From the IMG/VR virus record IMGVR_UViG_3300023170_004399, positions 96,001-160,000 of that record: a DNA stretch of 64,000 bases; one strand, written 5' to 3'. The number at the start of each line of letters is the position of its first letter. Within the stretch, counting starts at the first letter, position 1. The DNA comes from a virus (lineage: Duplodnaviria > Caudoviricetes). Below the pieces are notes generated by a model that searched no databases, had not been told where the DNA came from, and saw only the letters and a list, made by a program, of their open reading frames with translations. Shown in pieces: positions 40,684 to 56,975 of this stretch. The translations under genes were made by a program, and so were the position numbers.

Positions 40684-41610
40684 ATGCATGATAAACTAAA
40701 ATACCTACAGAAGATATTCGGCCCAATAAAAAAGCATGGTGGTAATGAGATCTCCGTGCGTTGTCCTTTTTGTTCTAAACCTGGTAGCACAAAGAAAAAG
40801 TTGGCTATAAGAACTGACACTGATTATTTTCATTGTTGGGTCTGCGATATAAAAGGTAGAAACTTAAGCTTTCTTATTAAAAAAGTTAATTCTGGTTTGC
40901 TATCAGATTATATTAACAAATTTGGTAATTCAAAATACTCTATAGAAAAAGAAGTTGTAGTTACTAAAACAGAATTACCTGAAGGTTTTAGATTAGTAAT
41001 GGAGTCTTTGTGGGACCCTGATGCTAAAGCAATAAAGAAATATTGTGAAGAGCGTGGAATAACAGAAGATCTTATGTGGAGATATAGATTAGGTTATACA
41101 AACAAAGATTTTAAGTTGAGAAACCGCTTAATAATACCTAGCTTTGATGTAGATGGTGATATTAATTACTGGGCAGCTCGCACAATACAAAAAGACAATA
41201 ATTATAAGTACTTAAACGCACAAATTAAAAAAACGAATATCGTTTTTAATGAAATAGATGTTGATTGGTCTAAACCATTGTTTGTAGTAGAAGGGCCCTT
41301 AGATTTGGTAAAATGTAAACATTTAAATGCAACATGCATATTAGGTTCAAGTCTTAAAGAGAATGATATGTTGTTTTACAATATTGTTAAAAATAACACA
41401 CATGTGATACTTTGTTTAGACATTGATGCGGAAAAAAAGAAAAATAAAATTGCTAAAAACTTAGTAGAATATAATGTAAACGTTTCACATGTCACTGTTG
41501 AAAATGGTGATATTGGTGATTTAAACCCAGATCAAGTTCTAGATGTTTATAAAAAATCAACACCATGGTCTGAAAAAAGCGCACTGTTGCAAAGGATAAA
41601 AATGTTATGA
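40684..41610 (+). CDS. DNA primase (DnaG/gp61-like; Zn finger plus TOPRIM)
   Basis: CPFC...HCWVC zinc finger; VVEGPLD and LDID TOPRIM motifs. Confidence 0.8.
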   Translation: MHDKLKYLQKIFGPIKKHGGNEISVRCPFCSKPGSTKKKLAIRTDTDYFHCWVCDIKGRNLSFLIKKVNSGLLSDYINKFGNSKYSIEKEVVVTKTELPEGFRLVMESLWDPDAKAIKKYCEERGITEDLMWRYRLGYTNKDFKLRNRLIIPSFDVDGDINYWAARTIQKDNNYKYLNAQIKKTNIVFNEIDVDWSKPLFVVEGPLDLVKCKHLNATCILGSSLKENDMLFYNIVKNNTHVILCLDIDAEKKKNKIAKNLVEYNVNVSHVTVENGDIGDLNPDQVLDVYKKSTPWSEKSALLQRIKML

Positions 41611-44600
41611 AGATTGTTCATATTGCTGATGTTCATTGGCGTGGTCTGACGCGTCATAAAGAATATAAAGATAGTTTCACAGACATGTTTAATCAATGTA
41701 AAATGATTAAGCCGGATGCAATCGTTGTAGCTGGTGACATTGTACATAATAAAACACAAGGTATTTCACCTGAGCTTATTGATTGCTTAAGATGGTGGTT
41801 TACTGAGATGAATAATATATGTGATACGTATGTAATGCTAGGTAACCATGATGGACTTGTACTTAACACTGATAGACAAGATGCCATCAGTCCTATTTTA
41901 AGAGCCTTAAATCTTCCAAATGTGCATTTGTATAGGGACTCCGGTGTTTTTCCTTGTGATAAGCTTGGAGTTAACTGGTGCGTATTCAGTCCTTTTGATG
42001 AATTGAATTACAGTAACGTTGTGCCAAAGAATAATGGCAATATAAATATTGCATTATATCACGGTGCTGTTTGGGGTTCACATACTGACACAAATTACAT
42101 GTTAGATGGTGAAACAGGAATGTCACTATTTAAACCATTTGACTTTACAATGCTAGGTGATATTCATAAAACACAACAACTTGATAAAGAAGGTCGTGTA
42201 TGGTATTGCGGATCTACAATTCAGCAAAATTATGGCGAATCCATGGACAAGGGTTTTCTTCTGTGGGACATTGTGGATAAAGATAATTTCACTGTTGAGT
42301 TTAAAAAAGTTAAACATAATGTTCCGTTTGTAACTGTAGATTGGGCTGGTGATATAGACAGTACTTCATTTAATTGTATGACTAACTGGCCAAAAAAATC
42401 TAGATTTAGAATAAGGGCATATGAAAATTTAGACCCTAAAACACAAAGAAAACTAAGTAACAAACTAAGAAGGGAACACAATGCAGAAGAAGTAGTATAT
42501 AAAATAGATTTAAGAAACGATAAAACAGGTTTAACAGTAGACCAAACAAATAAAGTAAAATTAGAAGACTTGTCAAATCCGGATACTCATAAGAGATTGT
42601 TAAGAGAATATTCTGCTGACGAATCTCACAAAGATGAGGTTTTTTGGAACAAGGTTGATAAAATAGTTGATGAGCTAGTGCCTAATTTAAAATCTATATC
42701 TGATTTTAGATCAGCAAAGTGGTCAGTAAAAAAGATGAATTTTGATAATACATTTGGTTATGGTAAAGATAACACTATAAATTTTAGCAAATTAAATGGC
42801 ATTGTAGGTTTGTTTGGCAAAAACCGGTGTGGAAAATCATCTATACCAGGAACATTAATGTATTCCTTGTTTAATTCCAACGATAGAGGTTTGACTTCTA
42901 TAATGCATGTAATAAACAATAGATCTCAGGAATGTAATGCTGATGTTGTTTTTACTGTTAATGGAAAACCATATAGGTTGGAAAGACAATCGGTTAGATA
43001 TAGAAATCCTCGAGGCGAAGGTGCTATGTCGTATCTAAACTTATTTGAAATAGACAATGATGAAAACATTGTTAGAGATTTATCAGGCGAACAAAGAAAG
43101 GACACCGAAAAATCTTTACGTGAATTGATAGGTTCCCCAGATGAATTTATGATGACTTCTTTTGCTGCGCAAGGTAATATGAATAATTTTATTAACAAAG
43201 GCGCAACTGATAGGAAGAAGACTTTGAGCTCATTTTTAGGTTTAGATGTTTACGATAACTTATCTTCTGTTATTAGAGAGGAATCCGCTGGCATTAAATC
43301 TTTGATGAAAAGATATGAGCAAAAAGATTGGGAAAAAGAAATTTTAGCATGTAAAGAAAATTTAAAAAATTTGGAAATTAATAAAGAAAAACTCAAGTTT
43401 GATATTGGTGAATTAACAGCGGAATATGATAAAATAAAATCAGAGGCCAAGAGTGAAAATAAAGATTTTGTTGATCCAAATTCTCTGATCAATTTGCAAA
43501 AACTTATAAAAAAAGAAAATAAGAAATTAGATAGTGTAAATGAAGAAATAAAAGATAAATCAGAACAAATATCAAAACAGCTAAAGTATATTATTGATAC
43601 TAAAAAAATATTAAATAATGTTGATATTGACTTTTGTCACAAAACGCTAGATTTAATCAATAGTGTTAATGCAAGTATTTCTAAAATAAAGATAAAATAT
43701 AGTAAAGAACACTCGTTATTAGATAATCAAAAAAAATCTGTTAAACTGTTAAACCAGGTACCCTGTGGTAATCAGTTTCCTACATGTAAATTTATAGCGG
43801 AAAGTCATAAGAATAAACTGCTCTTGTCAGAACAAAAAACACTGGTTAAAAGTTTAAAAGGTGATATAGATAACTTAAAAGAAAAAATATCGGAATATGA
43901 CGAAACTGAATTAAAAGATAAAATTAAGAAATATGATGCACTTAAAAACAAACTATCTCAGGTAAATAATAATATTGCATTACTGAAGGAGCAAATAATT
44001 TCATTAAAATATGCAAAAAAAGAAATAGAGAAATCTATTGCAATGAAAACAAAAGATGCACAGAACATTGAGTTGTTGTTAGAGAATAGCGATAATGCTA
44101 TAATATCAGCTATTAATAAAAAACTTGCAGATGTAACTACACAGAAGAAGCAAAAGAAGAATAAGTTGCATGTTGTTTTACAAAATATGGGCAGCGAGCA
44201 AAGACAAATTGAAAAACTGATCCAAGATCAAAAAGAGTTTGATGATTTGCAAGTTGAGTGGACAGTTTATGATTTTCTTTTGCGCGCAACTAGCTGGCGC
44301 GGTATACCTACCTTTATAATGGAAAAACAAATGCCTGTTATCAACCTAGAATTAAGCAGGATTTTAGAAGATGTAACTGGTTTTACTGTTGAATTAGAAG
44401 TAGATGAAAGGAACACTAATATATTTATCAATTATGGTGACAGCAGAAGACCAATAGAGTGTGGTTCTGGTATGGAAAAAATGGTTTCGTCAATGGCTCT
44501 TAGAGTTGCTTTGTCAAATGTGTCATCACTTAATAAATCAGATATGTTTATTGTCGATGAAGGTTTTGGTGCACTTGACCCACAAAATATTGAAGCTGTT

Positions 44601-44738
44601 AGTGGTTTACTAAAAAGATTTAAGAAATATTATAGGTTAATATTGATTATATCTCATGTCGATGTAATAAAAGATTCAGTAGATGACATGTTGGAGATTA
44701 CTAAAAATGGCAGAGACGCTAAAATATCATACGAATGA
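41607..44738 (+). CDS. Fused Mre11/SbcD nuclease - Rad50/SbcC ABC ATPase (gp47-gp46 fusion)
   Basis: Phosphoesterase motifs IADVH, AGDIVH, LGNHD, YHG, LGDIH; Walker A GKNRCGKS; signature GSGMEK; Walker B FIVDEGFGALD; ISH loop; all in one frame. Confidence 0.9.
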   Translation: MKIVHIADVHWRGLTRHKEYKDSFTDMFNQCKMIKPDAIVVAGDIVHNKTQGISPELIDCLRWWFTEMNNICDTYVMLGNHDGLVLNTDRQDAISPILRALNLPNVHLYRDSGVFPCDKLGVNWCVFSPFDELNYSNVVPKNNGNINIALYHGAVWGSHTDTNYMLDGETGMSLFKPFDFTMLGDIHKTQQLDKEGRVWYCGSTIQQNYGESMDKGFLLWDIVDKDNFTVEFKKVKHNVPFVTVDWAGDIDSTSFNCMTNWPKKSRFRIRAYENLDPKTQRKLSNKLRREHNAEEVVYKIDLRNDKTGLTVDQTNKVKLEDLSNPDTHKRLLREYSADESHKDEVFWNKVDKIVDELVPNLKSISDFRSAKWSVKKMNFDNTFGYGKDNTINFSKLNGIVGLFGKNRCGKSSIPGTLMYSLFNSNDRGLTSIMHVINNRSQECNADVVFTVNGKPYRLERQSVRYRNPRGEGAMSYLNLFEIDNDENIVRDLSGEQRKDTEKSLRELIGSPDEFMMTSFAAQGNMNNFINKGATDRKKTLSSFLGLDVYDNLSSVIREESAGIKSLMKRYEQKDWEKEILACKENLKNLEINKEKLKFDIGELTAEYDKIKSEAKSENKDFVDPNSLINLQKLIKKENKKLDSVNEEIKDKSEQISKQLKYIIDTKKILNNVDIDFCHKTLDLINSVNASISKIKIKYSKEHSLLDNQKKSVKLLNQVPCGNQFPTCKFIAESHKNKLLLSEQKTLVKSLKGDIDNLKEKISEYDETELKDKIKKYDALKNKLSQVNNNIALLKEQIISLKYAKKEIEKSIAMKTKDAQNIELLLENSDNAIISAINKKLADVTTQKKQKKNKLHVVLQNMGSEQRQIEKLIQDQKEFDDLQVEWTVYDFLLRATSWRGIPTFIMEKQMPVINLELSRILEDVTGFTVELEVDERNTNIFINYGDSRRPIECGSGMEKMVSSMALRVALSNVSSLNKSDMFIVDEGFGALDPQNIEAVSGLLKRFKKYYRLILIISHVDVIKDSVDDMLEITKNGRDAKISYE

Positions 44739-45405: not shown

Positions 45406-47001
45406 ATGAGTACACATAAACAGAAGCAAATAGCAGAAATTATAAAATGTGGAAAGAATCCAGATTATTTTTTTAACAAATATGTTAAAATTCAACATCC
45501 GGAAAGAGGATCTATACCATTTAAAACCTATGATTTTCAAAATGATTGTGTTGATGCATTTAGGGAGCATAGGTTTAATATAGTTTTAAAAAGCCGGCAG
45601 TTAGGTTTATCTACTATAGCTGCGGGTTATGTTGCATGGTTAGCTGTTTTTCACAAAGATAAAAATATATTGATTATTGCTACTAAACTTAGTGTAGCAC
45701 AAAACTTTATAAAAAAAGTCAAATTTATAATAAAGTCAATGCCTAATTGGCTTTTGCTGCCTGAGATATCTGGAAACAATAAACAAACAATAGAGTTTTC
45801 TAATGGATCAGTTATCAAAGCTGTGCCAACTTCTGATGATGCTGGTCGTTCGGAAGCTTTGTCTTTGCTAATAGTAGATGAAGCTGCGTTTGTAAGAAAC
45901 TTTGATACTATATGGACTGGTTTATATCCAACGCTGTCAACTGGTGGTAGTGCAATTATACTTTCAACTCCAAACGGTGTTGGTGGTCAATATTATGATT
46001 TATGGATTGGTGCAACAAATAAAACAAATGTTTTTAATCCAATAAAATTAATGTGGGACGTGCATCCTGATCGGGATGATGAATGGTTTGAAAATGAAAC
46101 CAGGAACATGACGCAGAAACAAATTGCGCAAGAGCTATTATGCGATTTTCAATCTTCTGGTGAAACTTTTATAAGGCCAGAAGATATAGAATATATGTTA
46201 AGCTGGATAAAACCGCCTATTGAAAAATGGGGTCCAGATAACAATGTTTGGGTATGGAAATATTCTTTATCGGAAAAAAAATATATCATTAGTGCGGATG
46301 TAAGTAGAGGTGATTCTAAAGATTTTTCTACTTTTCATGTAATTGACACAGAAAACAGTGAAATAGTTTGCGAATACAGGGGTTTAGCACCACCCGATCA
46401 ATTTGCGCAAATTTTAGCAGAAGCCGGGAAAAGATACAATAATGCTTTAATATGCCCTGAAAACAATTCTTATGGTTATGCTTTGATTATGAAGATGGTT
46501 GAATTAGATTACAAGAATATGTATTACGCATCTGAAAAAGATAGATATGCAGCATTATATGGGTCAGTGGATATAGGAAAAATAGGTTTTCAAACTAACT
46601 CAAAAACTAGGCCGCAAATCTTAACAAAACTAGAAGAAGTACTGCGTACAAAACAAATTAAAGTATATTCAGAAAGGTTGTATGAAGAATTAAAAACTTT
46701 TGTATGGGTTGGTAAAAAAGCGCAAGCAAGAAAAGGTTGTCATGATGACTTAGTCATGGCACTAGCTATTGGTGTGTGGTTGTATGATACATCACCACAG
46801 TTATCGAAACAAGGGTTTGATGTAAATAAAGCAATGTTAGGTGCTTTTTCTGTTAACTCTGTGAAGTTTAATGATACAATATTAGACCAGGAAAATAAAA
46901 ACACTACTGATGTCAAAGATTCTAATGGCAGACATGTAAGAATTGTAAAAGATCCAAGGTTATCTAATAAAGATGATGATGAATTTAACTGGTTGCTATA
47001 A
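45406..47001 (+). CDS. terL: Terminase large subunit (T4 gp17-like)
   Basis: Walker A LKSRQLGLST, Walker B LIVDEAAF, STPNG, nuclease SADVSRG and HDDLVMALA. Confidence 0.95.
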   Translation: MSTHKQKQIAEIIKCGKNPDYFFNKYVKIQHPERGSIPFKTYDFQNDCVDAFREHRFNIVLKSRQLGLSTIAAGYVAWLAVFHKDKNILIIATKLSVAQNFIKKVKFIIKSMPNWLLLPEISGNNKQTIEFSNGSVIKAVPTSDDAGRSEALSLLIVDEAAFVRNFDTIWTGLYPTLSTGGSAIILSTPNGVGGQYYDLWIGATNKTNVFNPIKLMWDVHPDRDDEWFENETRNMTQKQIAQELLCDFQSSGETFIRPEDIEYMLSWIKPPIEKWGPDNNVWVWKYSLSEKKYIISADVSRGDSKDFSTFHVIDTENSEIVCEYRGLAPPDQFAQILAEAGKRYNNALICPENNSYGYALIMKMVELDYKNMYYASEKDRYAALYGSVDIGKIGFQTNSKTRPQILTKLEEVLRTKQIKVYSERLYEELKTFVWVGKKAQARKGCHDDLVMALAIGVWLYDTSPQLSKQGFDVNKAMLGAFSVNSVKFNDTILDQENKNTTDVKDSNGRHVRIVKDPRLSNKDDDEFNWLL

Positions 47002-47024: not shown

Positions 47025-47039
47025 TATGTGAGGGTTATT

Positions 47040-49031
47040 ATGGCGGAAGAAACACTATTCAACAGATTAACGAAGCTTTTCAGATCTGGGCCTACAATTA
47101 AAAGAAAGGTTAGGACATATACTAAAGCAGATAAAAATGCTAGCTCGGCTGTTGAGTTATTTAAAAAACATCACTCTGATGTTTATAACACTACATTAAG
47201 TGCTTATGGCACATTCGATAGAATGGCTAGATATAGTGATTTTTCAGAAATGGAAAGTACGCCAGAACTAGCCTCAGCTCTTGACATATATGCAGAAGAG
47301 ACTGTTTCACAAGATGCTGAAGGAAGAGTTTTGCACATATATTCTGACAATAGAATAGTGAAAGAATTATTAGAAACACTTTTTTACGATACTCTTAACA
47401 TTGATTTTAACCTGGTTATGTGGGTTAGAAACTTGTGTAAGTATGGTGACTTCTTTCTTTTTAATGATGTGCATCCGGAATACGGCGTTATTAATGCATA
47501 TCCTATACCTATAACTGAAATCGAGCGTGAAGAAGGTTATGATGCAGATGATCCTTCAGCTGTTAGGTTTAGATGGATAACACAAGGCAATCAGACTTTA
47601 GAAAACTGGCAGATTACACATTTTAGGCTTTTGGGAAATGATGCATTTTTACCATATGGGTCATCTGTGCTGGAATCAGCTCGTAGAATATGGCGACAGC
47701 TTATATTAATAGAAGACGCTATGTTAGTATATCGTGTAATCAGGGCGCCTGAAAGACGTGTTTTTTATATTGATGTTGGTAATGTGCCGCCAGAAGATAT
47801 AGCAACATACGTAGAGCAAGCAAAAACTAGTTTAAAAAGAGACTCTGTTGTTAACAAAACAACTGGCCAAGTAGATTTAAGATATAATCCAATGGCTGTC
47901 GATGAAGATTACTTTATCCCAGTAAGAGGTGGTGATTCTGGTACTAGGATTGATAATTTGGCTGGTGGGCAAAATGCTTCTGCCATTGAAGATGTACAAT
48001 ACGTGCAGAAAAAACTGTTTGCTGCGCTTAAGATACCAAAAGCTTATTTAGGGTATGATGAAGACACAGGTGCTAAAGCGACATTGGCACAAGAAGATGT
48101 TAGATTTAGTAGAACAATTCAGCGTATTCAGAAAACTGTTATTGCTGAGTTAAATAAGCTAGCCATGATACACTTGTATTCGCATGGGTTTGAAGGTGAA
48201 GAGTTGTTAAACTTTTCATTAAGTTTGTCTAATCCATCTTCTTTAGCACAACAACAAAAGCTTGAATTAATTAAGACTAAGTTTGATATTGCTGGAAGTG
48301 CACCTGAAGGAATGGTGTCAAAAACATGGTTATATAAAAATGTTTTTTCATTTACTAAAAACCAAATTGAATTAATTCAAAAGCAAAAAATGAAAGAGAA
48401 ATTAGATGATGCTGCATTAGAAGCTGCTGGGAGTGCTGGTGGAGAGGAAGGTGGTGATGCTGGTGGAGACGCTGGTGGAATGGGTGGTTTGTTTAGCGGA
48501 GACAAACCTGAGGGACCATTGCTTAATAATTTAGCTGCAGACAATTTTAGAGAGTCGGAAGCTGTTGTTGGTGATCTAATAGATGAAGATGAAGACGAAG
48601 ATATCGATTTTGTATATGATAAAATAGACAACTATAAAATACAGCCGGAAAAATCTGTTAAGAAAAATGTTTTTGGTGAACCATTAAAAACTAGTCGCAA
48701 AAGAGAAAAGAAAGAAACTTTGTCACCGGGTAAACTATCCGGGATGAACATGGTTAGTGTAACTAGTAACAGAAACACAACAAAAGAGTTTTTAAAAAAT
48801 CCTTTTGGTAACATATATGGAGAAAATTTGCGTTTAGCAGATTCAATTTTAGGTTTTGATCAAGAAGAAGAGGAAGAAGATACATATATAGGTTATAGAC
48901 CAGTTATGGATTATTCTATACAAAGAATGTTTGAGAAAATGAATTCTAAGTTTGGTGTTAAGAAGTTAATAAAAGAAAATAAAGATGAAGAGTTTGAAAT
49001 AGATATTGATTTGGAGGATCAGGATGACTAA
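47040..49031 (+). CDS. gp20: Portal protein (T4 gp20-like) with acidic C-terminal extension
   Basis: YRVIRAPERRVFYIDVGNVP, EDYFIPVRGG, ALKIPKAYL signatures; start moved to ATG 47040. Confidence 0.93.
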   Translation: MAEETLFNRLTKLFRSGPTIKRKVRTYTKADKNASSAVELFKKHHSDVYNTTLSAYGTFDRMARYSDFSEMESTPELASALDIYAEETVSQDAEGRVLHIYSDNRIVKELLETLFYDTLNIDFNLVMWVRNLCKYGDFFLFNDVHPEYGVINAYPIPITEIEREEGYDADDPSAVRFRWITQGNQTLENWQITHFRLLGNDAFLPYGSSVLESARRIWRQLILIEDAMLVYRVIRAPERRVFYIDVGNVPPEDIATYVEQAKTSLKRDSVVNKTTGQVDLRYNPMAVDEDYFIPVRGGDSGTRIDNLAGGQNASAIEDVQYVQKKLFAALKIPKAYLGYDEDTGAKATLAQEDVRFSRTIQRIQKTVIAELNKLAMIHLYSHGFEGEELLNFSLSLSNPSSLAQQQKLELIKTKFDIAGSAPEGMVSKTWLYKNVFSFTKNQIELIQKQKMKEKLDDAALEAAGSAGGEEGGDAGGDAGGMGGLFSGDKPEGPLLNNLAADNFRESEAVVGDLIDEDEDEDIDFVYDKIDNYKIQPEKSVKKNVFGEPLKTSRKREKKETLSPGKLSGMNMVSVTSNRNTTKEFLKNPFGNIYGENLRLADSILGFDQEEEEEDTYIGYRPVMDYSIQRMFEKMNSKFGVKKLIKENKDEEFEIDIDLEDQDD

Positions 49032-49866
49032 AAAATCCCACAACAAAAAACGAAATGTCGGGATTGTCTACGAACAACTAGTGTATACACTTAGCAAAGC
49101 ATTAGTCGAAGATAATTTTATAACGGCAAATAACACAAAAAAAATTATTAAAAAATTTTTTAAACCAGGTACTGAACTTTATAAAGAACATAAATTATTT
49201 AAAGCTTTGGTCAATGTTGAAATAAAAGATGGCAGTTTAGCAACAAAGATCTTAGAAGAAGCAAAATATGCCAGTAAGAATTTTAATGCTAGTTTACTTA
49301 ATAAAGAAAAATCAAGATTGATAAAAGAAATTAATTACACTTTGGGTAAAGAAGTATATAGCAGTAAGTTGTCTCAATACAAAAAGTTTGCCACAGTCCA
49401 ATCAACTTTAGATATGTGGAGAACAAAAAACCCTGATATATCTAAATTAGCATTGTACGAGTCCAAATGCCATGATATTCTCATGGAAGCTAAGGTTGAA
49501 ACTGATTTAGAAACTTTGAAAACACCGGAAGCGGAAACGTTAGTTGTTAAAATTATGACAGAAAAGTTTAACCAAAAATACAAAAATTTAGATGATACTC
49601 AAAAAATGTTGATTAAAGAATATGTATTTTTCCAATCAGGTCAAAAAAATAGTTTTTTACATGCTATTAAAAATATTAAGCAGAAAACGCTTAACGAAAT
49701 ATCTAGATACAATGTTTCTAGTACTAATAAGTTTGTTAATACTAAGTTAAATGAAGTTAAAAATGATATAGAAAAAATCGATGTAGCTAACGTTAAAGAT
49801 GATACAATTGCTAAGTTTATGCAGATGTGTCAGTTAGTACAGGAACTGGAGACAAATGATGAGTAA
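49024..49866 (+). CDS. Hypothetical head-region protein (280 aa)
   Basis: SHNKKRNVGIVYEQLV N-terminus; helical; between portal and protease; start ATG 49024. Confidence 0.7.
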   Translation: MTKKSHNKKRNVGIVYEQLVYTLSKALVEDNFITANNTKKIIKKFFKPGTELYKEHKLFKALVNVEIKDGSLATKILEEAKYASKNFNASLLNKEKSRLIKEINYTLGKEVYSSKLSQYKKFATVQSTLDMWRTKNPDISKLALYESKCHDILMEAKVETDLETLKTPEAETLVVKIMTEKFNQKYKNLDDTQKMLIKEYVFFQSGQKNSFLHAIKNIKQKTLNEISRYNVSSTNKFVNTKLNEVKNDIEKIDVANVKDDTIAKFMQMCQLVQELETNDE

Positions 49867-50467
49867 TCTAAAAGTACTTACAGAGTGGGCACCATGGGAT
49901 TTTGATAAAGATAAAATGCTGCAAGAGAGAGCAAAGGGTGATGGAAAATACATCATGAGAGGAATTCTTCAAAAAGCTAATACGTTAAATCAAAACGGCA
50001 GAATATACCCATTAGAAATTTTAGAAAGAGAAGTTAGAAATTATCAAAAATTTATTGCTGAAAACAGAGCCTTAGGCGAGTTAGACCACCCTGATTCTAG
50101 TGTTGTTGAGCTGAAAAACGCATCACACATTGTCAGAGAAGCATATATGGAAGGTGATATATGTTATGGCACAGTGGAAATTTTAGACACGCCATCTGGG
50201 AAAATATTGCAATCGCTTATTGACACTGGAGTTACATTAGGGATATCTTCACGTGGTGTTGGATCAACTAGAAGAGAAGGTGATAATCAAGTTGTGCAGG
50301 ATGATTTTCAATTAATTTGTTGGGACTTCGTTTCTGAACCATCTACACCGGGCGCATTTATGATGAAAGAAGGTAAAGAAGTTAGTAAAAAAGATTTAAA
50401 TAAAAGATTTAATAAATCAGATAGAATAGATAGAATCTGTAATGATATCTTAAGTTGGAGAAAATAA
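49856..50467 (+). CDS. gp21: Prohead protease (T4 gp21-like)
   Basis: NQNGRIYP, ALGELDHP, ASHIV, TPSGKIL, LGISSRGVGS, WDFVSEPSTPGAF. Confidence 0.93.
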   Translation: MMSNLKVLTEWAPWDFDKDKMLQERAKGDGKYIMRGILQKANTLNQNGRIYPLEILEREVRNYQKFIAENRALGELDHPDSSVVELKNASHIVREAYMEGDICYGTVEILDTPSGKILQSLIDTGVTLGISSRGVGSTRREGDNQVVQDDFQLICWDFVSEPSTPGAFMMKEGKEVSKKDLNKRFNKSDRIDRICNDILSWRK

Positions 50468-50469
50468 TA

Positions 50470-50883
50470 ATGGCTTATTTTGATATAGATAAAAGATTAG
50501 ATGGCACCTTGCCTGCTTTTACGGGTTCACAACAAAGCATGAGTTCAGGCTTGTTTAATGTACCATCGTATCAAGTATCTGGTATACCTTTAGTAAAAGC
50601 TTACACTGGCGCACAGTCAAACGTAAACCTAAGTTTTGAAACTATAAGTAGATGGATAATTGTAAGTGCTACTGGAGGAAATGTACAGTTAGCTTTTACT
50701 GAAGGTGGCATCGGTAGTGGTAATTTTATTACTGTGCCTAGTGGTGAAATGTCACCTAGAATTGAAGTAATGACAAATGGTATTTGGTTTACTTCTGTTG
50801 GTGACTGTCAAATCATGGCAGGTTTGACTTCAAATATCCTGTCTGGCAGTGCTCTTAATCTAACAAACTTCTCGGATGTTTAA
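50470..50883 (+). CDS. Small beta-rich head-region protein, possible capsid decoration protein
   Basis: GLFNVPSYQVSGIP..MAGLT; Gly/Ser-rich beta pattern; start ATG 50470; role inferred from position. Confidence 0.5.
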   Translation: MAYFDIDKRLDGTLPAFTGSQQSMSSGLFNVPSYQVSGIPLVKAYTGAQSNVNLSFETISRWIIVSATGGNVQLAFTEGGIGSGNFITVPSGEMSPRIEVMTNGIWFTSVGDCQIMAGLTSNILSGSALNLTNFSDV

Positions 50884-50903
50884 TAAAATATTATGGAGGC
50901 CAC

Positions 50904-51371
50904 GTGGCTAAATTAAATAAAAAAGCTTTAAAGCAACTAATCAAAGAATGCTTAGTAGAAATATTAGTAGAAGGAATTGGCGACGAAGGAGATATTCTGG
51001 AAGAGTCGTTTTATAGATCTGATATTGAACCTAAACGTACGAAGAAAAAAACTAGCAATGCTTATAAACAAAAAATGCAGCAAATACAAAAACAAAGAGA
51101 TGAATTAGATAAAGTTCGTGTTAATTCACAGCCTCAAGTAAAACAAGATTTTTCTGATATAACATCTGATAGTGTAATGCAAAGTATTTTTGCGGATACA
51201 GCTAAGACTACTTTGGTGGAACAAGTTGAAGGAAAGCGCGGTAGTATTTCTGGCCCTGTAGGTGGAAATGACACATATGCTAGAATTGCAAATGAGAATG
51301 ACCCTATGGACTTGTTTGAAAATTCAAGTCGTTGGGCTAATTTAGCATTTATGGATAAAAAACCGAGTTAA
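50904..51371 (+). CDS. Hypothetical head-region protein (155 aa, GTG start)
   Basis: GGAGG RBS; N-terminal LKQLIKECLVEILVE. Confidence 0.75.
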   Translation: MAKLNKKALKQLIKECLVEILVEGIGDEGDILEESFYRSDIEPKRTKKKTSNAYKQKMQQIQKQRDELDKVRVNSQPQVKQDFSDITSDSVMQSIFADTAKTTLVEQVEGKRGSISGPVGGNDTYARIANENDPMDLFENSSRWANLAFMDKKPS

Positions 51372-51374
51372 TAT

Positions 51375-51381
51375 ATAATTA
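51375..51381 (+). promoter_or_regulatory. Candidate late promoter ATAATTA
   Basis: 35 nt before ATG 51410; this unit would include bS21. Confidence 0.4.
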
Positions 51382-51409
51382 GGTAAGTACACTTTTCTGG
51401 AGATATGTT

Positions 51410-51721
51410 ATGAGAAAAAGACGCACAAAAAAAGTAAAAAAGATGTCGGCCGCAGAGCTTAAGAGATTAATCTTAAGTGAAGTGAAAAAATTGCAAATGG
51501 AAGCATTAACTGGCAAAGTTGAAGATATTTCAAAAGTCAAAGCTGAAGAAGTAGATGCATCTGAGTATGCTGATAGTATTGAGCAAGATATAGATTTTAT
51601 GAAAGCTTTAAAAATTCATGAAGCAAAACTAAATCGCAGACATAAAATTATGCGTAGAAAAATGTTAAAGTTGCAGGAAGCAAAGAATAAGTTACGTCGA
51701 AGAATAACAAAAAAATTATAG
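51410..51721 (+). CDS. Hypothetical basic coiled-coil head-region protein (103 aa)
   Basis: GGAG RBS; LKRLILSEV motif. Confidence 0.75.
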   Translation: MRKRRTKKVKKMSAAELKRLILSEVKKLQMEALTGKVEDISKVKAEEVDASEYADSIEQDIDFMKALKIHEAKLNRRHKIMRRKMLKLQEAKNKLRRRITKKL

Positions 51722-51733
51722 GAGTAACATAAT

Positions 51734-52249
51734 ATGGCTAAAAGAAAAGGCTTCACATTAGTTGAATCAAATAAAAACGGTCAAGATGGACAAAAAGGTA
51801 GATCTAATCATGCCAGATTAGCTGCAGCCTACCCAGGTAGCCCGGCTTATAGTGGTGATTATGGTGATCAGACTGTTCATGATTTACAGAAAAAAGAATT
51901 GCTAACTGGTAAAGTTATTAATGGGCACATGTTTGCTAGTTATGATAGAGATTTTACCGGTGATGGAACAATCTCACCACCCGGTTATGCGGAAGTTGAT
52001 GTTGATGGTGCAAACTTATCTAATCCTTTTATGGCAAATCTAGGATCCCCCGGTGAAGGTTCTTTTGATGATGATTCTAAACCAGCACCTAGTGAGCATT
52101 TGCAAGATGCAGAAGCTATTGTAAAAGATAATTTTGGAACAGGCGATAATATTGTACTGCGTAATCCAAAATCAACTAGTGAAAAAGCTGCTTTAGGCGA
52201 TCCTTCTACTCTTCAAAAAGGTGTTAGCCCTGCTAGTGCGAAAAGTTAA
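51734..52249 (+). CDS. Hypothetical head-region protein (171 aa)
   Basis: AGGAG RBS; Gly/Pro/Asp-rich. Confidence 0.75.
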   Translation: MAKRKGFTLVESNKNGQDGQKGRSNHARLAAAYPGSPAYSGDYGDQTVHDLQKKELLTGKVINGHMFASYDRDFTGDGTISPPGYAEVDVDGANLSNPFMANLGSPGEGSFDDDSKPAPSEHLQDAEAIVKDNFGTGDNIVLRNPKSTSEKAALGDPSTLQKGVSPASAKS

Positions 52250-52252
52250 TAA

Positions 52253-52831
52253 ATGACACATTCAAAAGTATCAATCGGAGGCGGAAATTTTCCGGCCAGT
52301 CATGGTGACAGTAGAGACGGGCTAGGTTATGGTCGTCTCCGACCTACTTATGGAATGAAAAGTATGGGTAACAACTACCCGTATACGTGGGAAGAAGATA
52401 GCGATTTTGACTGGGAAGACGCTGATGTCGATGAAGAAGATATAGCAGCTGTTTCTGATAAACAACAGGGTCCGAGAGACTATGATCATGGTGGTGGGCA
52501 TTATGATCCTTTTTCTTTTGCTGGTGGGAATACTAAACTAGGTGAAGCGACGTCTATAAGTCCTATACCACACAGTAAATTGTATGGTAAAAACTTTAAA
52601 AGAAGTGCTGTTGGTGGCACTAAAACTGGAAAGGTTATCCCTGCAGTCAAGCACAGTACTGTGCCAGACACTTATGGTAGCAATGATGGTTTTTCTACAA
52701 TTTTAAGCTATGATGGCAACCATTATGATGAAAATGAAAATGAGGAAGATATATATAATTTAGAGGACGTTGCTAATGTCCAACAAGAAAATCTTTTAAG
52801 AAAATATATAAGAAATTTAATTGAGGTGTAA
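52253..52831 (+). CDS. Hypothetical head-region protein (192 aa)
   Basis: Acidic patches; C-terminal LLRKYIRNLIE. Confidence 0.75.
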   Translation: MTHSKVSIGGGNFPASHGDSRDGLGYGRLRPTYGMKSMGNNYPYTWEEDSDFDWEDADVDEEDIAAVSDKQQGPRDYDHGGGHYDPFSFAGGNTKLGEATSISPIPHSKLYGKNFKRSAVGGTKTGKVIPAVKHSTVPDTYGSNDGFSTILSYDGNHYDENENEEDIYNLEDVANVQQENLLRKYIRNLIEV

Positions 52832-53083
52832 ATGTCAAAAAAAGGTCACTCTAAGGGTAATTTTACTGTTAGGCACAAATTTAACAAGAAAAAAGCAAAG
52901 TTTCAAGACATGAGTTTAGAAGATCAAAACATGTTGTTAGTTAAAAAGTTTCAGAAAAAATTTAAACAAAGCGGCATTATAAAGGAATTAAGAGATAAGG
53001 TTGCTCCTATAACTCGCGGTCAAAAAAGACGGGCTAAAATTAAGGCGGGCATTAGAAGGGCTAAAAAATCACAAAAAAAATAG
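52832..53083 (+). CDS. rpsU: Phage-encoded ribosomal protein bS21 homolog (divergent)
   Basis: LVKKFQKKFKQSGIIKELRDK...QKRRAKIKAGIRRAKK follows the bS21 pattern AL(K/R)(K/R)F..K..K.G...E.R.R....K.S..R......A..R; highly basic, 83 aa; GAGGT RBS. The usual (F/Y)xKPS is replaced by APITRG. Confidence 0.72.
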   Translation: MSKKGHSKGNFTVRHKFNKKKAKFQDMSLEDQNMLLVKKFQKKFKQSGIIKELRDKVAPITRGQKRRAKIKAGIRRAKKSQKK

Positions 53084-53101
53084 TTTATCTTATTTTAGGT
53101 A

Positions 53102-53108
53102 ATAATTA
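53102..53108 (+). promoter_or_regulatory. Candidate late promoter ATAATTA (scaffold-MCP unit)
   Basis: 33 nt before GTG 53135. Confidence 0.4.
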
Positions 53109-53134
53109 ATGAATAGTTTTTACGGAGAAATGTT

Positions 53135-54949
53135 GTGAAAAGTATATATGAGCAAGCTATTGCTGATGCTAAGAAACTCAAAGAAATTGCAGAAGCAAAC
53201 GCTACTAATAAAATTATAGAAGCAGTAACACCAAAAATAAGAAGACTTATTGAGCAAGAATTAGAGGGTGATGAGCTTGTTGATGATGATATGGAAGATT
53301 TAATTGATGATCAAGATGATTTAGATGATCTAGATGACGATGATTTAGATGATGACATCGATGATGAAATGGATGATTTAGATGACGAATTAGACATGGA
53401 AGATGAAGCTTATGATCCGGGTGGAGACTATGGTTCTGATGTAGAATTCAATCTAGATGGTATGTCAGATGATTTAGGTATGGAAGATGCAGGAAGTGAC
53501 TATGATATGGATGTTGATTTTTCTGCAAATGATGAACCAATATCTGTCGACACTGATATGTCAATGCCTGATAGTGATAGTGGTAAAAATGTTACTTTTA
53601 ATATCACTGTTGAGCAAGCAGCAAATAAAAATTTAAAACATTTGTCTGGTAGAAAGAGATATAAGCTTATGAAAGATAGAGCTGGTTTCCTTATTGCAAA
53701 ATTAGCAGAGTCAAAAAATAGACGCCAGCAAAAGAAAATTTTATCTGAATTAGCGAAAATTAAAAAACAGTTAATACTTATAAACAATGGAACAAAAACA
53801 GTCCTCACTGAGGGTATTTCTAAGTTACTAAAGGAGAGTAATATGAATAGAAGAAATCGTCGACGTAGTCGACTTAATGAAAACGCCTGGTGGTTGTTTG
53901 AAGCTGAGGGCGATGAAAAAGAAGCAGAAGAAGCAGAAGCTGGATTCGATGATGAAGAAGAAGGCGGAGACGAAGAAGACTTTGACATGGATGATGAAGA
54001 CATGGGTGAAGACGAAGAAATAGACGTCGATGTTGATGCGATTAAATCTGCTGTCGAAGATCTTGCTGCGGCCGTTGGTTTAGAAGTAGATGAAGGTGGA
54101 GCAGATGATGAAGACATGGACTTCGGAGATGATGAAGACATGGACTTCGATGATGAAGATTTTGGAGACGATGATGCTGATGCCGATGATGCTGATGATG
54201 CTGATGCCGATGAAGGTTACATGGCTGAAGAAGATGAGAAAGAAGTTGTTGAAATTTCTGAATCTATGCTTCGAAGAGAACTTAGAAAAATGAATGAGTC
54301 GAAAAGACGTCGTAGAAGAACACCTAGAAGAAGACGTAGATTAAGAGAAAGCGAAGCTAAAGATGCAGCATCTTCTTTTGGTGGTGGAAAAGCTGAGAAA
54401 GATATGTTCGTAGATGTTTCTGAAGAATCATTGCTTAATGCATTGGCTGAAGAGCTAGGTGATGCTCATGATATGACTATCAACTCTGAGCATGCAGAAG
54501 GCGGCGCAGATAAAATGGTTGGTCACTTTGGTGGTGGATCAATTCAAAAAGGTGTTGTACCTGAAGCTCGATTGCGTAGAGAAAGACGCAGAGCTCGAAT
54601 TGCAGAAAGAAAAGCAATAGCTGCTAAAAAAGAATTGCGTGAGTCGAATCTTTTTAACGCAAAGTTGCTTTATGTTAATAAACTTTTACAAAACCATAAC
54701 TTGTCAAAGAAACAACAACGTGCTATTGTTGAGGCTCTCGATAATGCTAAAACAGTACGTGAAGCAAAATTGTTATTTACTTCTTTGACAGAATCACTTC
54801 AGAGACGTAACACTAAGGGCAGTGCACGTCGATTGTCTGAAGGGCGTATAATAGGATCTGGATCAAGCAAATCAGTCCGTAGTGGGTCTCCTGCTAAAAT
54901 TGGAACTGAGTTAGATCGATGGCAGGTACTCGCTGGTATTAAAAAATAA
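53135..54949 (+). CDS. Prohead core/scaffolding protein (T4 gp22-like, GTG start)
   Basis: IYEQAIADAKKLKEIAEANA start, long Asp/Glu tracts, C-terminal LRESNLFNAKLLYVNKL..AKTVREAKLLF and ELDRWQVLAGIK; directly before the MCP. Confidence 0.75.
   Translation: MKSIYEQAIADAKKLKEIAEANATNKIIEAVTPKIRRLIEQELEGDELVDDDMEDLIDDQDDLDDLDDDDLDDDIDDEMDDLDDELDMEDEAYDPGGDYGSDVEFNLDGMSDDLGMEDAGSDYDMDVDFSANDEPISVDTDMSMPDSDSGKNVTFNITVEQAANKNLKHLSGRKRYKLMKDRAGFLIAKLAESKNRRQQKKILSELAKIKKQLILINNGTKTVLTEGISKLLKESNMNRRNRRRSRLNENAWWLFEAEGDEKEAEEAEAGFDDEEEGGDEEDFDMDDEDMGEDEEIDVDVDAIKSAVEDLAAAVGLEVDEGGADDEDMDFGDDEDMDFDDEDFGDDDADADDADDADADEGYMAEEDEKEVVEISESMLRRELRKMNESKRRRRRTPRRRRRLRESEAKDAASSFGGGKAEKDMFVDVSEESLLNALAEELGDAHDMTINSEHAEGGADKMVGHFGGGSIQKGVVPEARLRRERRRARIAERKAIAAKKELRESNLFNAKLLYVNKLLQNHNLSKKQQRAIVEALDNAKTVREAKLLFTSLTESLQRRNTKGSARRLSEGRIIGSGSSKSVRSGSPAKIGTELDRWQVLAGIKK
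54104..54208 (+). repeat. Short exact tandem repeats in the scaffold acidic tract
   Basis: GATGATGAAGACATGGACTTC at 54104-54124 and 54128-54148; GATGATGCTGATGCC at 54170-54184 and 54194-54208. Confidence 0.9.
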
Positions 54950-55001: not shown

Positions 55002-56975
55002 ATGTCTTTTAATGTAAAAATGTTGACTGAAGGTATCCGTGAACGACACATGGGCGCTCAACACAAACGCCTAGTCGAGAAATGGAACCGCACCGGTCTA
55101 CTTAGAGGTCTTAATGGCCAAAACAAAGAAAATATGTCTGTATTGCTTGAAAACCAAGCTGCTCAAGTATTGCGTGAAGCTAACACACTTGGAAATGGTG
55201 GATCTGCTTCCGGTGATATTCGTGGTTTCCAAAACGTAGCATTTCCTATCGTTCGTCGTGTATTCGGTGGATTGGTTGCTAACGAATTGGTTTCTATTCA
55301 ACCAATGTCACTTCCTTCCGGACTTCTTTTCTATCTAGATTACACATACGGATCAAATGTTGGTGGATCAGATCAATCTGGAACAGATAACGACAGCTCA
55401 GTGTACACTTCTGGACAATCTATTTATAACAATCCTACTGGTAAGGGAATTCAAAGCGGTTCTCAAGCAACTGGTGGTCAATACGACTTGCTTGGTTCTG
55501 GTTTTTCCAGACGTCATGTAACACAAAAGTTTGACAACTCTGATAGTGAATTAATTTTAGGTGCATTTACAGATTTTAATACTTGGTCTACTACAACAAA
55601 TCTTATTCAAGAAGGTACAGCTAGTGCCGATGCTCAGGACTTGTTCTCTGCAGGTAACGGTCGTTTTTCTGGATATGATACAGCACTTGCTAATCGTATT
55701 GACAATGGTGATTATGATGCAATTTGGGCTTTGGTAAAGCTTTCTCAACTAACTAGTTCTTTGGGCAAAGTTGATGAAACCATGGTTAAAGACATCGGTC
55801 TTTTTACAACTGGTACAGTTAACGTCAGTACTAACATAGGTGCTTTTGACACAACTGATCAGCCTGGTAACAACCTTCTTAACCTTCGAAGATTGAATCA
55901 AATTGTACAATACAATAGTAGTACAAACAAAGTAACTCCTGCACCACTAGCGACATCTGATGTAGCTGATGCATATCTTTTGACACTTCTTCGAATGGAT
56001 GGAGCTTTAACTATAGTTCCTGCATCTGGTGACATTGGTGACGAAGATATTTCTGTTTCTTATCCTATTAAGGCACAGCTTGATGTTGGTTCTACAACTG
56101 GTGATGCATTGACTATTCCAACATTCGAATCAAACCTTGATAGCCAAAACGGTAGTTCTTATTCACAAGTTTCCCCTGTTATTCCAGAAATTGATATCAA
56201 AATTGAATCTCTTTCAGTAACAGCTGTAACTCGTAAGTTGCGTGCTCGTTGGTCTCCAGAATTGGCACAAGATCTTAATGCTTATCACTCATTGGATGCT
56301 GAAGTTGAATTGACACAAATCCTTTCCGAGCAAATTGCTCTTGAATTGGACCGTGAAATTCTTAATGACTTGTTGACAGCTGCTAATGGTGCTAACTTCT
56401 TCTGGTCACGTGCTCCTGGAAAATTTGTTAACAAAGAGCGTGGAACAACTATAAAACGTGCAGAAGGTACATCAACAGCTGATCCTGGACCTAACTTTAC
56501 TGGTACAGTTCGTGAATGGTATGAAACTCTTGTTGAGACCATTATTGATGTAGCTAACACAATTCAACGTAAGACATTGCGTGGATCAGCTAACTTTATC
56601 GTAGTTGGACCTGATGTTGCTACTATTCTTGAAGCTTCAGTAATGTACAAGCCTTCATATACACTTGATGGTGATGGACAAGCACAAGCTGGTCTTACAA
56701 TCGGTGCAGAACGTGTTGGTAACTTGACAAACCGTTTCACAGTTTATAAAGATCCTTACTTCCCACGTAACAAGATTCTTGTCGGTTACAAAGGTGGATC
56801 TTACCTTGAAACAGGTTATGTATATGCTCCTTACGTACCTCTTATCGTAACACCTACAATCTTTGCTCCTGAAGACTTCACACCACGTAAGGGTGTAATG
56901 ACTCGATACGGAAAGAAGATGGTTCGATCAGACTTCTACGGAACTGTAACATGTTTGGATATGAACATCATCTAA
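55002..56975 (+). CDS. gp23: Major capsid protein (T4 gp23-like)
   Basis: VRRVFGGLVANELVSIQPMSLPSGLLF, TRKLRARWSPELAQDLNAYH, EIDRE-like ELDREIL, YAPYVPL, FTPRKGVMTRYG. Confidence 0.96.
   Translation: MSFNVKMLTEGIRERHMGAQHKRLVEKWNRTGLLRGLNGQNKENMSVLLENQAAQVLREANTLGNGGSASGDIRGFQNVAFPIVRRVFGGLVANELVSIQPMSLPSGLLFYLDYTYGSNVGGSDQSGTDNDSSVYTSGQSIYNNPTGKGIQSGSQATGGQYDLLGSGFSRRHVTQKFDNSDSELILGAFTDFNTWSTTTNLIQEGTASADAQDLFSAGNGRFSGYDTALANRIDNGDYDAIWALVKLSQLTSSLGKVDETMVKDIGLFTTGTVNVSTNIGAFDTTDQPGNNLLNLRRLNQIVQYNSSTNKVTPAPLATSDVADAYLLTLLRMDGALTIVPASGDIGDEDISVSYPIKAQLDVGSTTGDALTIPTFESNLDSQNGSSYSQVSPVIPEIDIKIESLSVTAVTRKLRARWSPELAQDLNAYHSLDAEVELTQILSEQIALELDREILNDLLTAANGANFFWSRAPGKFVNKERGTTIKRAEGTSTADPGPNFTGTVREWYETLVETIIDVANTIQRKTLRGSANFIVVGPDVATILEASVMYKPSYTLDGDGQAQAGLTIGAERVGNLTNRFTVYKDPYFPRNKILVGYKGGSYLETGYVYAPYVPLIVTPTIFAPEDFTPRKGVMTRYGKKMVRSDFYGTVTCLDMNII

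Follow-up and report, generated by a model that had tools for sequence, protein, structure and literature searches.

A diverged bS21-like gene in the head operon of large T4-like marine and salt-marsh phages

The gene and its head operon

The phage DNA analyzed here, referred to below as the window, is a stretch of 64,000 nucleotides (nt) from a member of the Caudoviricetes (positions 96,001 to 160,000 of the IMG/VR record IMGVR_UViG_3300023170_004399). Our subject is a small open reading frame (ORF) among its head genes, which an initial annotation, made from the letters alone, had described as a divergent phage-encoded version of the ribosomal protein bS21. The basic ORF of 83 amino acids (aa) was found where it had been placed, with the sequence that had been quoted, and comprises the following features.

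52832..53083, plus strand: S21-like ORF (P0001), 83 aa, ATG to TAG, stop codon included in the coordinates
52823..52828, plus strand: Shine-Dalgarno (SD)-like GAGGTG within the 3' end of the preceding gene, ORF192, with the GAGG core 5 nt from the ATG
52832..52915, plus strand: N-terminal basic/aromatic region, residues 1-28, with N10 and V13 invariant in the family, predicted to be unstructured and holding clade-specific extra residues
52916..53080, plus strand: bS21-like core, residues 29-83, modeled by AlphaFold2 as helix 29-47, helix 49-55, loop 56-61 and helix 62-82

The S21-like ORF is a real gene under strong purifying selection. Its product holds 29 Lys and Arg against 5 Asp and Glu residues (35% Lys+Arg) and is 86% identical to that of an orthologue, L001, from Tara and other marine assemblies. 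The two genes differ by 31.5 synonymous and 16.5 non-synonymous changes (dS ~2, dN 0.086), and the resulting dN/dS of 0.043, to be read with the saturation of the synonymous sites in mind, compares with 0.128 for the adjoining 171-aa ORF. All amino-acid changes except one fall either in the first third of the protein or in its C-terminal tail, the sole change within residues 33-76 being that of I to M at position 60.

The claimed position inside a head operon held as well. The S21-like ORF lies in a T4-type module on the same strand as the genes listed here.

45406-47001, plus strand: TerL (Terminase_6N)
47028-49031, plus strand: gp20 portal (Portal_T4, E 6e-78)
49856..50467, plus strand: prohead protease, gp21 type (Peptidase_S77)
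50455..52249, plus strand: four conserved small ORFs (142, 155, 103 and 171 aa) without family hits
52253..52831, plus strand: ORF192 (192 aa), without family hit, its stop abutting the S21-like start
53135..54949, plus strand: acidic scaffold-like ORF of 604 aa (161 Asp+Glu), its putative function drawn from position and composition only
55002..56975, plus strand: major capsid protein (MCP), gp23 family

An ORF of 286 aa lies between the portal and the prohead protease, and baseplate, fibre-like and sheath genes as well as a fused Mre11/Rad50-like ORF are found farther from the head module. The TAA of ORF192 (52829-52831) immediately adjoins the ATG of the S21-like ORF, an arrangement that suggests translational coupling. 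Neither sigma-70-like promoters nor terminators in the operon exceeded the numbers found in shuffled sequences, and no signal separating the S21-like ORF from the head genes was observed. The T4 late promoter TATAAATA was not enriched.

The same arrangement was found in six further contigs (L001/L002, L007/L008, a 67-kb JGI contig, L009/L010, L140 and L141), the S21-like proteins of which are 46-86% identical to the window protein. In all contigs examined, the order and orientation are the same: protease, five small ORFs, S21-like gene, an acidic ORF of 555-615 aa and MCP, with the S21-like start abutting or overlapping the upstream stop in every case. A contig of 305,838 bp (G001:C5), binned in the Methylococcaceae metagenome-assembled genome (MAG) GCA_002170535.1, is a phage genome related to the window; it consists of a unit of 280,180 bp and a terminal overlap of 25.7 kb at 99.8% identity. 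Apart from the S21-like gene of this phage, no PF01165 match was found in the MAG. The lineage is thus one of large (~280 kb) T4-like marine and salt-marsh phages. The window stretch was nearly complete (85-99% of the sampled words) in eight salt-marsh metagenome runs, three of which are possibly its source, and was partly present in marine runs. In four salt-marsh metatranscriptome runs, contigs identical to the MCP, the scaffold-like gene and ORF171 were found; none extended across 52335-53456, although such contigs cannot show the absence of an S21-like transcript.

The five small ORFs at 50455-52831 had no Pfam or PHROG match and are, by their position, candidate prohead core proteins, although far more numerous than gp67 and gp68 of T4. 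Two of them start with LxE-rich segments (LKQLIKECLVEILVE; LKRLILSE). ORF192 ends in an amphipathic helix, LLRKYIRNLIEV (52796-52828), which resembles N-terminal (I/L)xE leaders, and its counterparts in the three contigs examined (L001, L007 and L009) keep a similar C-terminal helix (IRLFVRATLLE..., LREWIRLTLL...). Only in the window's own clade does this helix stand in frame with the S21-like ORF across a single TAA. A readthrough fusion of the two ORFs was considered and rejected as a conserved feature, the window and L001 sharing the frame while L007 and L009 use other frames.

Further observations concern the neighborhood. The fused gene (window 41607-44738, 1043 aa) joins a Metallophos domain (Mre11/gp47-like) with AAA_23/SMC_N (Rad50/gp46-like) and precedes TerL in L140, L141 and the 67-kb JGI contig too. 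The MCP has 657 aa (638-672 in the family), compared with 536-544 aa in its relatives Flavobacterium phage immuto and LR756508.1; its tblastn matches come in two pieces with 57% coverage and its Pfam Gp23 match is likewise split in two, pointing to an extra segment in the N-terminal half. An antisense Ser-rich ORF of 213 aa within the scaffold-like gene (53500-54141, minus strand) is in all likelihood no gene but a by-product of a sense strand rich in GAT and GAA.

Relationship to bS21

Relatives of the window protein were recovered at E-values of 1e-11 to 4e-5 in an exhaustive search of 1.8 billion representatives, and a profile search brought the family to at least 268 members, marine metagenome proteins with a length of 70-90 aa. 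A few members have already been named "ribosomal protein S21" by JGI, and a precomputed PF01165 domain is attached to several. Neither tblastn nor pattern scans, run with the protein or with the family as query, recovered a relative from cultured phages, IMG/VR or GTDB genomes, and tblastn with the window protein or P0123 matched no cultured phage.

The curated cut-offs for bS21 are 27 bits for PF01165 and 28.95 bits for TIGR00030, and several results weigh against reading the product as a bS21 that acts on the ribosome. Taken alone, the window protein had PF01165 as its top family but below threshold, with 16.2 bits (E 0.0085) over profile positions 15-54, and its score against TIGR00030 (14.6 bits, E 0.023) was also below threshold. 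The family members scanned in this analysis peaked at 25.0 bits, short of the 27 set for PF01165. The conserved (F/Y)-E-K-P-(S/T) loop between helices 2 and 3 is replaced, and the N-terminal strand (V-x-V) could not be placed with confidence, AlphaFold leaving residues 1-28 unstructured.

The low scores of the single protein would also suit an explanation without homology, according to which a Lys/Arg-rich helical protein resembles bS21 through composition alone. In line with it, a profile hidden Markov model (HMM) built from 27 proteobacterial bS21 sequences gave the window protein 3.1 bits, a score equalled by ~3% of shuffled sequences. No PHROG match was obtained for the window protein. Its best sequence match among Protein Data Bank (PDB) entries (E 0.16), the bS21 chain (chain z) of 7JIL, speaks for homology, as do its top-ranked PF01165 and TIGR00030 matches. 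The entry 7JIL is the ribosome of Flavobacterium johnsoniae (cited by Chen 2022, PMC9723584).

At the level of the family, the signal was specific and reciprocal. PF01165 was the top family in 10 of 11 members scanned singly (best E 2.5e-6); among five further members it ranked first in four (25.0, 24.9, 17.2 and 13.2 bits, all below 27), while the fifth had no PF01165 match. When the family profile was compared with all PDB sequences, bS21 accounted for 20 of the 25 chains listed and for all of the top 16. Alignment of the family with the 27 canonical bS21 sequences by hhalign gave P-values of 5.9e-5 to 1.1e-4 in two runs over 51 columns, pairing window residues 34-83 with canonical residues 13-63. 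Composition could hardly account for this, since 26 of 123 real sequences but only 1 of 2460 shuffles reached at least 10 bits against the canonical HMM, and reversed sequences did not exceed 4.5 bits. The core F40..K43.K45..G48 I49..E52 L53 R54 matches helices 1 and 2 of bS21 without gaps, in line with the retained bS21 core described in the initial annotation.

The predicted structure points in the same direction. An AlphaFold2 model based on 58 family sequences had a mean pLDDT of 80 and values of 87-97 across the core. Its predicted secondary structure shows the layout of helix 1, Gly turn, helix 2, loop and long helix 3. Canonical bS21, modeled likewise, has helices at 12-26, 28-36 and 43-70, so that an offset of 21 would place them at 33-47, 49-57 and from 64 onward in the window protein; helix 1 ends at the same residue, the Gly break coincides exactly and the loop lies two residues off. 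The three predicted helices are accordingly in register with the canonical model, which is consistent with a bS21-like fold. Searches with the window model gave no match by Foldseek against PDB and AFDB-SwissProt, and VIA-align in its wide mode returned generic long helices only (Z < 4). The failure of both programs to return bS21 could be held in favor of chance resemblance. However, the same search with the canonical bS21 model retrieved bS21 chains only at 73-91% identity (TM ~0.44, rmsd 8-12 Å), and at 25-40% identity its E-values were already 0.05-9. Since the canonical control also depends on high sequence identity, these negatives say nothing either way; the poor retrieval is explained by the shape of bS21 being dictated by rRNA.

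Strong independent support for homology comes from a related phage. In the phage collection searched, the MCP is nearest to that of LR756508.1 (50% identity) and Flavobacterium phage immuto (47.5%), followed by Microcystis phage Mel-JY01 and Rhodothermus phage RM378. LR756508.1 is an uncultured phage of 484 kb with a single S21 gene, located on the same strand directly upstream of a scaffold-like gene and the MCP. The product of this gene is unambiguous, scoring 39.9 bits, above the cut-off, over profile positions 2-53, with a Y-T-K-P-S loop and no N-terminal extension. No S21 was found in immuto, and a 75-aa ORF after its protease, considered as a counterpart, proved unrelated to S21. The shared slot suggests that S21 was either captured once long ago and then diverged, or was captured repeatedly at a favored location.

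Taken together, these results make it very probable that the family is homologous to bS21, while chance resemblance, already disfavored, is in our estimate highly improbable. The evidence supports a homology that can be demonstrated at the family level only, not from the window protein alone. The bS21 identity given in the initial annotation thus stands by way of the family (profile, PDB and hhalign comparisons), whereas the protein by itself stays under every curated threshold; PF01165, proposed there as a check, was the top-ranked match though a sub-threshold one. As the scores lie below the curated cut-offs and the loop motif is replaced, we class the protein as a bS21-like homologue and not as a canonical PF01165 member.

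Differences from canonical bS21 include the N-terminus and the loop. Before helix 1, the family is ~8-9 residues longer than canonical bS21, and the clade of the window adds 4 more; Lys, Phe and His are abundant in this segment. Two parses of this region were obtained. In the first, a strand N-F-T-V-R (residues 10-14) is followed by an insertion of 12-14 residues; in the second, produced by MAFFT with the canonical sequences, the canonical strand and turn correspond to S-L-E-D-Q-N, preceded by an N-terminal extension of ~25 residues. Of the insertion of about 12 aa after the first strand that had been described earlier, the greater length of the N-terminal region holds; its reading as an insertion is possible, and MAFFT favors an extension. 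A variant of 70 aa (P0006, on an ENA contig of 696 bp) lacks precisely residues 10-22 (NFTVRHKFNKKKA, 13 residues); the gap may be natural or due to misassembly, and bears on whether these residues are dispensable.

The loss of the (F/Y)xKPS motif noted earlier was also seen, in the form of a replacement. In the canonical set of 27 sequences E39, K40 and P41 are invariant, while the window protein has V-A-P-I-T-R-G and the family Y-P-x-T-(R/K)-G at this place. The full family motif, Y/F/A-P-x-T-(R/K)-G-x-K-x-R-x-K, has its own invariant residues (T61, G63, K65, R67 and K69). Judged from these sequences, the loop has been rewritten and re-fixed and has not decayed.

Shine-Dalgarno use and the host

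Use of SD motifs was scored as the presence of GGAG, GAGG or AGGA at -17 to -4 of gene starts. Of the 43 starts in the window, 25 carried such a motif, compared with a mean of 2.0 and a maximum of 7 at random positions. Counts in five relatives (L009, L001, L010, L140 and L141) were 7/14, 11/18, 7/12, 18/21 and 15/21, and in the 280-kb relative an SD precedes 182 of 347 genes. By contrast, immuto, the closest cultured relative, had 0/23, and the stretch of LR756508.1, the phage with the canonical S21, showed no enrichment (2/17).

In Bacteroidia, Tyr54 of bS21 stacks on A1534 and, together with bS18 and bS6, hides the anti-SD; in F. johnsoniae, loss of bS21, of its C-terminus or of Tyr54 confers SD-dependent initiation on the ribosomes (McNutt 2023). 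In an ungapped alignment with chain z of 7JIL, the equivalent of Tyr54 in the window protein is R75, and no F, Y, W or H occurs beyond F44, so that on the alignment no aromatic residue is available for the Tyr54 role. These facts allow a special case of the mechanism discussed below, in which the host is a member of the Bacteroidota and the Tyr54-less phage protein would displace host bS21, free the anti-SD and yield SD-preferring ribosomes. The SD-rich genomes of the window and its relatives, set against those of immuto and LR756508.1, would agree with it, as would the effect of losing bS21 or Tyr54 in F. johnsoniae. The MCP, moreover, is nearest to phages of Bacteroidota, and the S-adenosylhomocysteine (AdoHcy) hydrolase of the 280-kb relative is nearest to Bacteroidota sequences, which make up ~72 of its 80 best genome matches (~90%).

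However, SDs are found genome-wide in the 280-kb relative, including genes expected to be expressed before any product of the head operon, such as ribonucleotide reductase, the DnaB-like helicase and their neighbors (20/27 genes, 270-300 kb) and small ORFs (45% of those <120 aa). With such early-class genes also SD-led, the protein might need to be delivered with the virion for this special case to hold. TATAAT was enriched upstream of genes (41 versus 19.6 ± 4.0), while the Bacteroidota -7 motif TAnnTTTG was not (8 versus 7.9). A search for T9SS sorting domains found none. The AdoHcy hydrolase clade, furthermore, is old and its tree unrooted. The evidence on the host thus conflicts, AdoHcy hydrolase and MCP pointing toward Bacteroidota and the promoter motifs away from them. 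An ordinary SD-reading host fits these facts equally well or better, and more simply, and we regard the freeing of a hidden anti-SD as quite unlikely. If it were true, the phage would possess a private pool of SD-reading ribosomes in a Bacteroidota host that hides its anti-SD.

Some features of the 280-kb relative were observed in the same analysis. A methyl-cycle block (MetH, AdoHcy hydrolase and SAM synthetase) and UvdE lie in the region of lowest SD use (22-33%). Upstream of genes, TGTGTAG and CTGTGTA are 13-16-fold enriched (10 and 9 occurrences versus 0.6-0.7 expected) and TATAATA and GTATAAT ~10-fold, and the T4 late motif TATAAATA is absent in intergenic regions.

Proposed role and comparison with known phage proteins

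Ribosomal protein bS21 is by far the commonest ribosomal protein of phages and is widespread in aquatic ones (Mizuno 2019, PMC6375957). Its gene often adjoins those of the prohead protease, MCP, portal and TerL, and the two are transcribed jointly in the late phase of infection (Chen 2022, PMC9723584). What the initial annotation had stated of published phage bS21 (proximity to capsid genes, late expression) agrees with both studies. On the ribosome, bS21 occupies a site that, unlike most others, binds its protein loosely and allows exchange. The bS21 of Pelagibacter phage HTVC008M was found in Escherichia coli ribosomes, the activity of which fell to ~5% (Mizuno 2019, PMC6375957).

A retuning of the ribosome, as opposed to a plain substitution of host bS21, had been raised in the initial annotation as a possibility. 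We propose that the S21-like protein would be produced alongside the head proteins in late infection and might then exchange into the loosely held bS21 site on the platform of the 30S subunit, near the 3' end of 16S rRNA, as may be expected from the precedent of the tested pelagiphage bS21. There, beside the anti-SD, its basic/aromatic N-terminus and rewritten loop could alter how the platform handles mRNA leaders, and the altered recognition of leaders would favor phage messages, most of which are SD-led in this lineage. On balance we lean toward this mechanism as a whole, in which a bS21 homologue made with the head proteins swaps into the host 30S and biases initiation.

The location of the gene speaks on the other side too, since placement among genes of the prohead-core type and extreme basicity would also suit a virion-internal protein. 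Such a protein, S21-derived or S21-like, would belong to the prohead core or the internal proteins and be packaged with the DNA for charge neutralization or injection, and would no longer be ribosomal in the infection that makes it. T4-type phages encode core proteins between the prohead protease and the scaffold gene. The prohead core and internal proteins of T4 (gp67, gp68 and IPI-III) are small and encoded between portal/protease and scaffold/MCP, and the internal proteins are very basic. The window protein is like them in position, size and basicity: it belongs to a cluster of small genes, all on one strand, that the prohead protease and scaffold-like genes enclose, all lineages show coupling of its start to the preceding gene, and over a third of its residues are Lys or Arg. 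The LxE-rich N-termini of adjoining ORFs and the leader-like helix at the end of ORF192 fit this explanation as well. In contrast to the T4 proteins, the S21-like protein is homologous to bS21 and has no N-terminal (I/L)xE targeting leader; the only match to the leader pattern in the window is the C-terminus of ORF192, and the sole I-x-E of the S21-like protein (I50-K51-E52) sits in the conserved core, where canonical bS21 has L-x-E. The entire bS21 core is strongly constrained. Moreover, LR756508.1 has a canonical S21 in this slot, and canonical bS21 occurs among the head genes of other phages, where late translation is the favored reading. A role inside the virion therefore appears rather unlikely to us.

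The rewritten loop bears on another alternative, in which the bS21 helices are kept but the protein acts off the ribosome, as a chaperone of mRNA or rRNA, within another ribonucleoprotein (RNP) or by regulating translation of the head operon. The most conserved loop of ribosomal bS21 has been exchanged for a motif that differs from it yet is just as conserved, and a change of RNA partner could lie behind this; extraribosomal RNP roles of bS21 are documented (OLE RNP; PMC12054373). No candidate RNA was detected around the gene, where there was neither an Rfam match nor a conserved structure signal, and the retained core is read most simply as retained 30S binding, as in another phage bS21. We consider such a function unlikely.

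With the ribosomal mechanism as our preferred reading, the gene can be compared with known systems. In the freshwater Bacteroidetes phages of Chen 2022, with genomes of up to 331 kb, a small basic S21 homologue likewise occurs amid TerL, portal, protease and MCP genes, and a takeover of initiation late in infection was proposed. The bS21 genes of those phages, however, are on the reverse strand, and their products are close to host Bacteroidetes bS21 and keep Tyr54 or another aromatic residue, whereas the window gene is start-coupled, shares the strand of the head genes and belongs to SD-rich genomes; its product stays under the Pfam cut-off, with a rewritten loop and no aromatic residue late in the sequence. 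The rpS21 proteins of huge phages carry basic/aromatic N-terminal extensions (Al-Shayeb 2020, PMC7162821), and in this respect resemble the window protein. The S21 of LR756508.1 shares the position just upstream of the scaffold-like gene and an MCP 50% identical to that of the window, but is canonical and not extended. HTVC008M and Mosig are marine T4-like myoviruses with bS21 homologues, the former providing a functional precedent; their proteins are near to host alphaproteobacterial bS21 (54% identity; Mizuno 2019, PMC6375957). In Mosig, a cultured pelagiphage, the gene lies amid replication, chaperone and metabolic genes outside the head module. With bacterial bS21, the window protein has in common its size, basicity, a helix layout in register and the conserved F, K, G, E and R of helices 1 and 2; it differs by its sub-cut-off score, 12-25 extra N-terminal residues and the replaced (F/Y)EKPS loop.

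Since phage bS21 genes near head genes, their late expression and N-terminal extensions have already been published, the gene does not represent a novel type. The new element is a large subfamily of marine origin in which every member scanned here falls below the Pfam cut-off and most copies lack an S21 annotation. Equally new is the combination of a rewritten loop and an expanded N-terminus in a start-coupled gene with a fixed place on the head operon's coding strand, within SD-rich genomes.

Surveys that rely on the PF01165 threshold accordingly undercount phage bS21. A single operon slot offers a natural series, from the canonical S21 of LR756508.1 to this strongly diverged family, the variants of which can be used in assays of ribosome binding and mRNA selectivity. 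If the host belongs to the Bacteroidota, these phages would provide a direct test case for phage-made specialized ribosomes.

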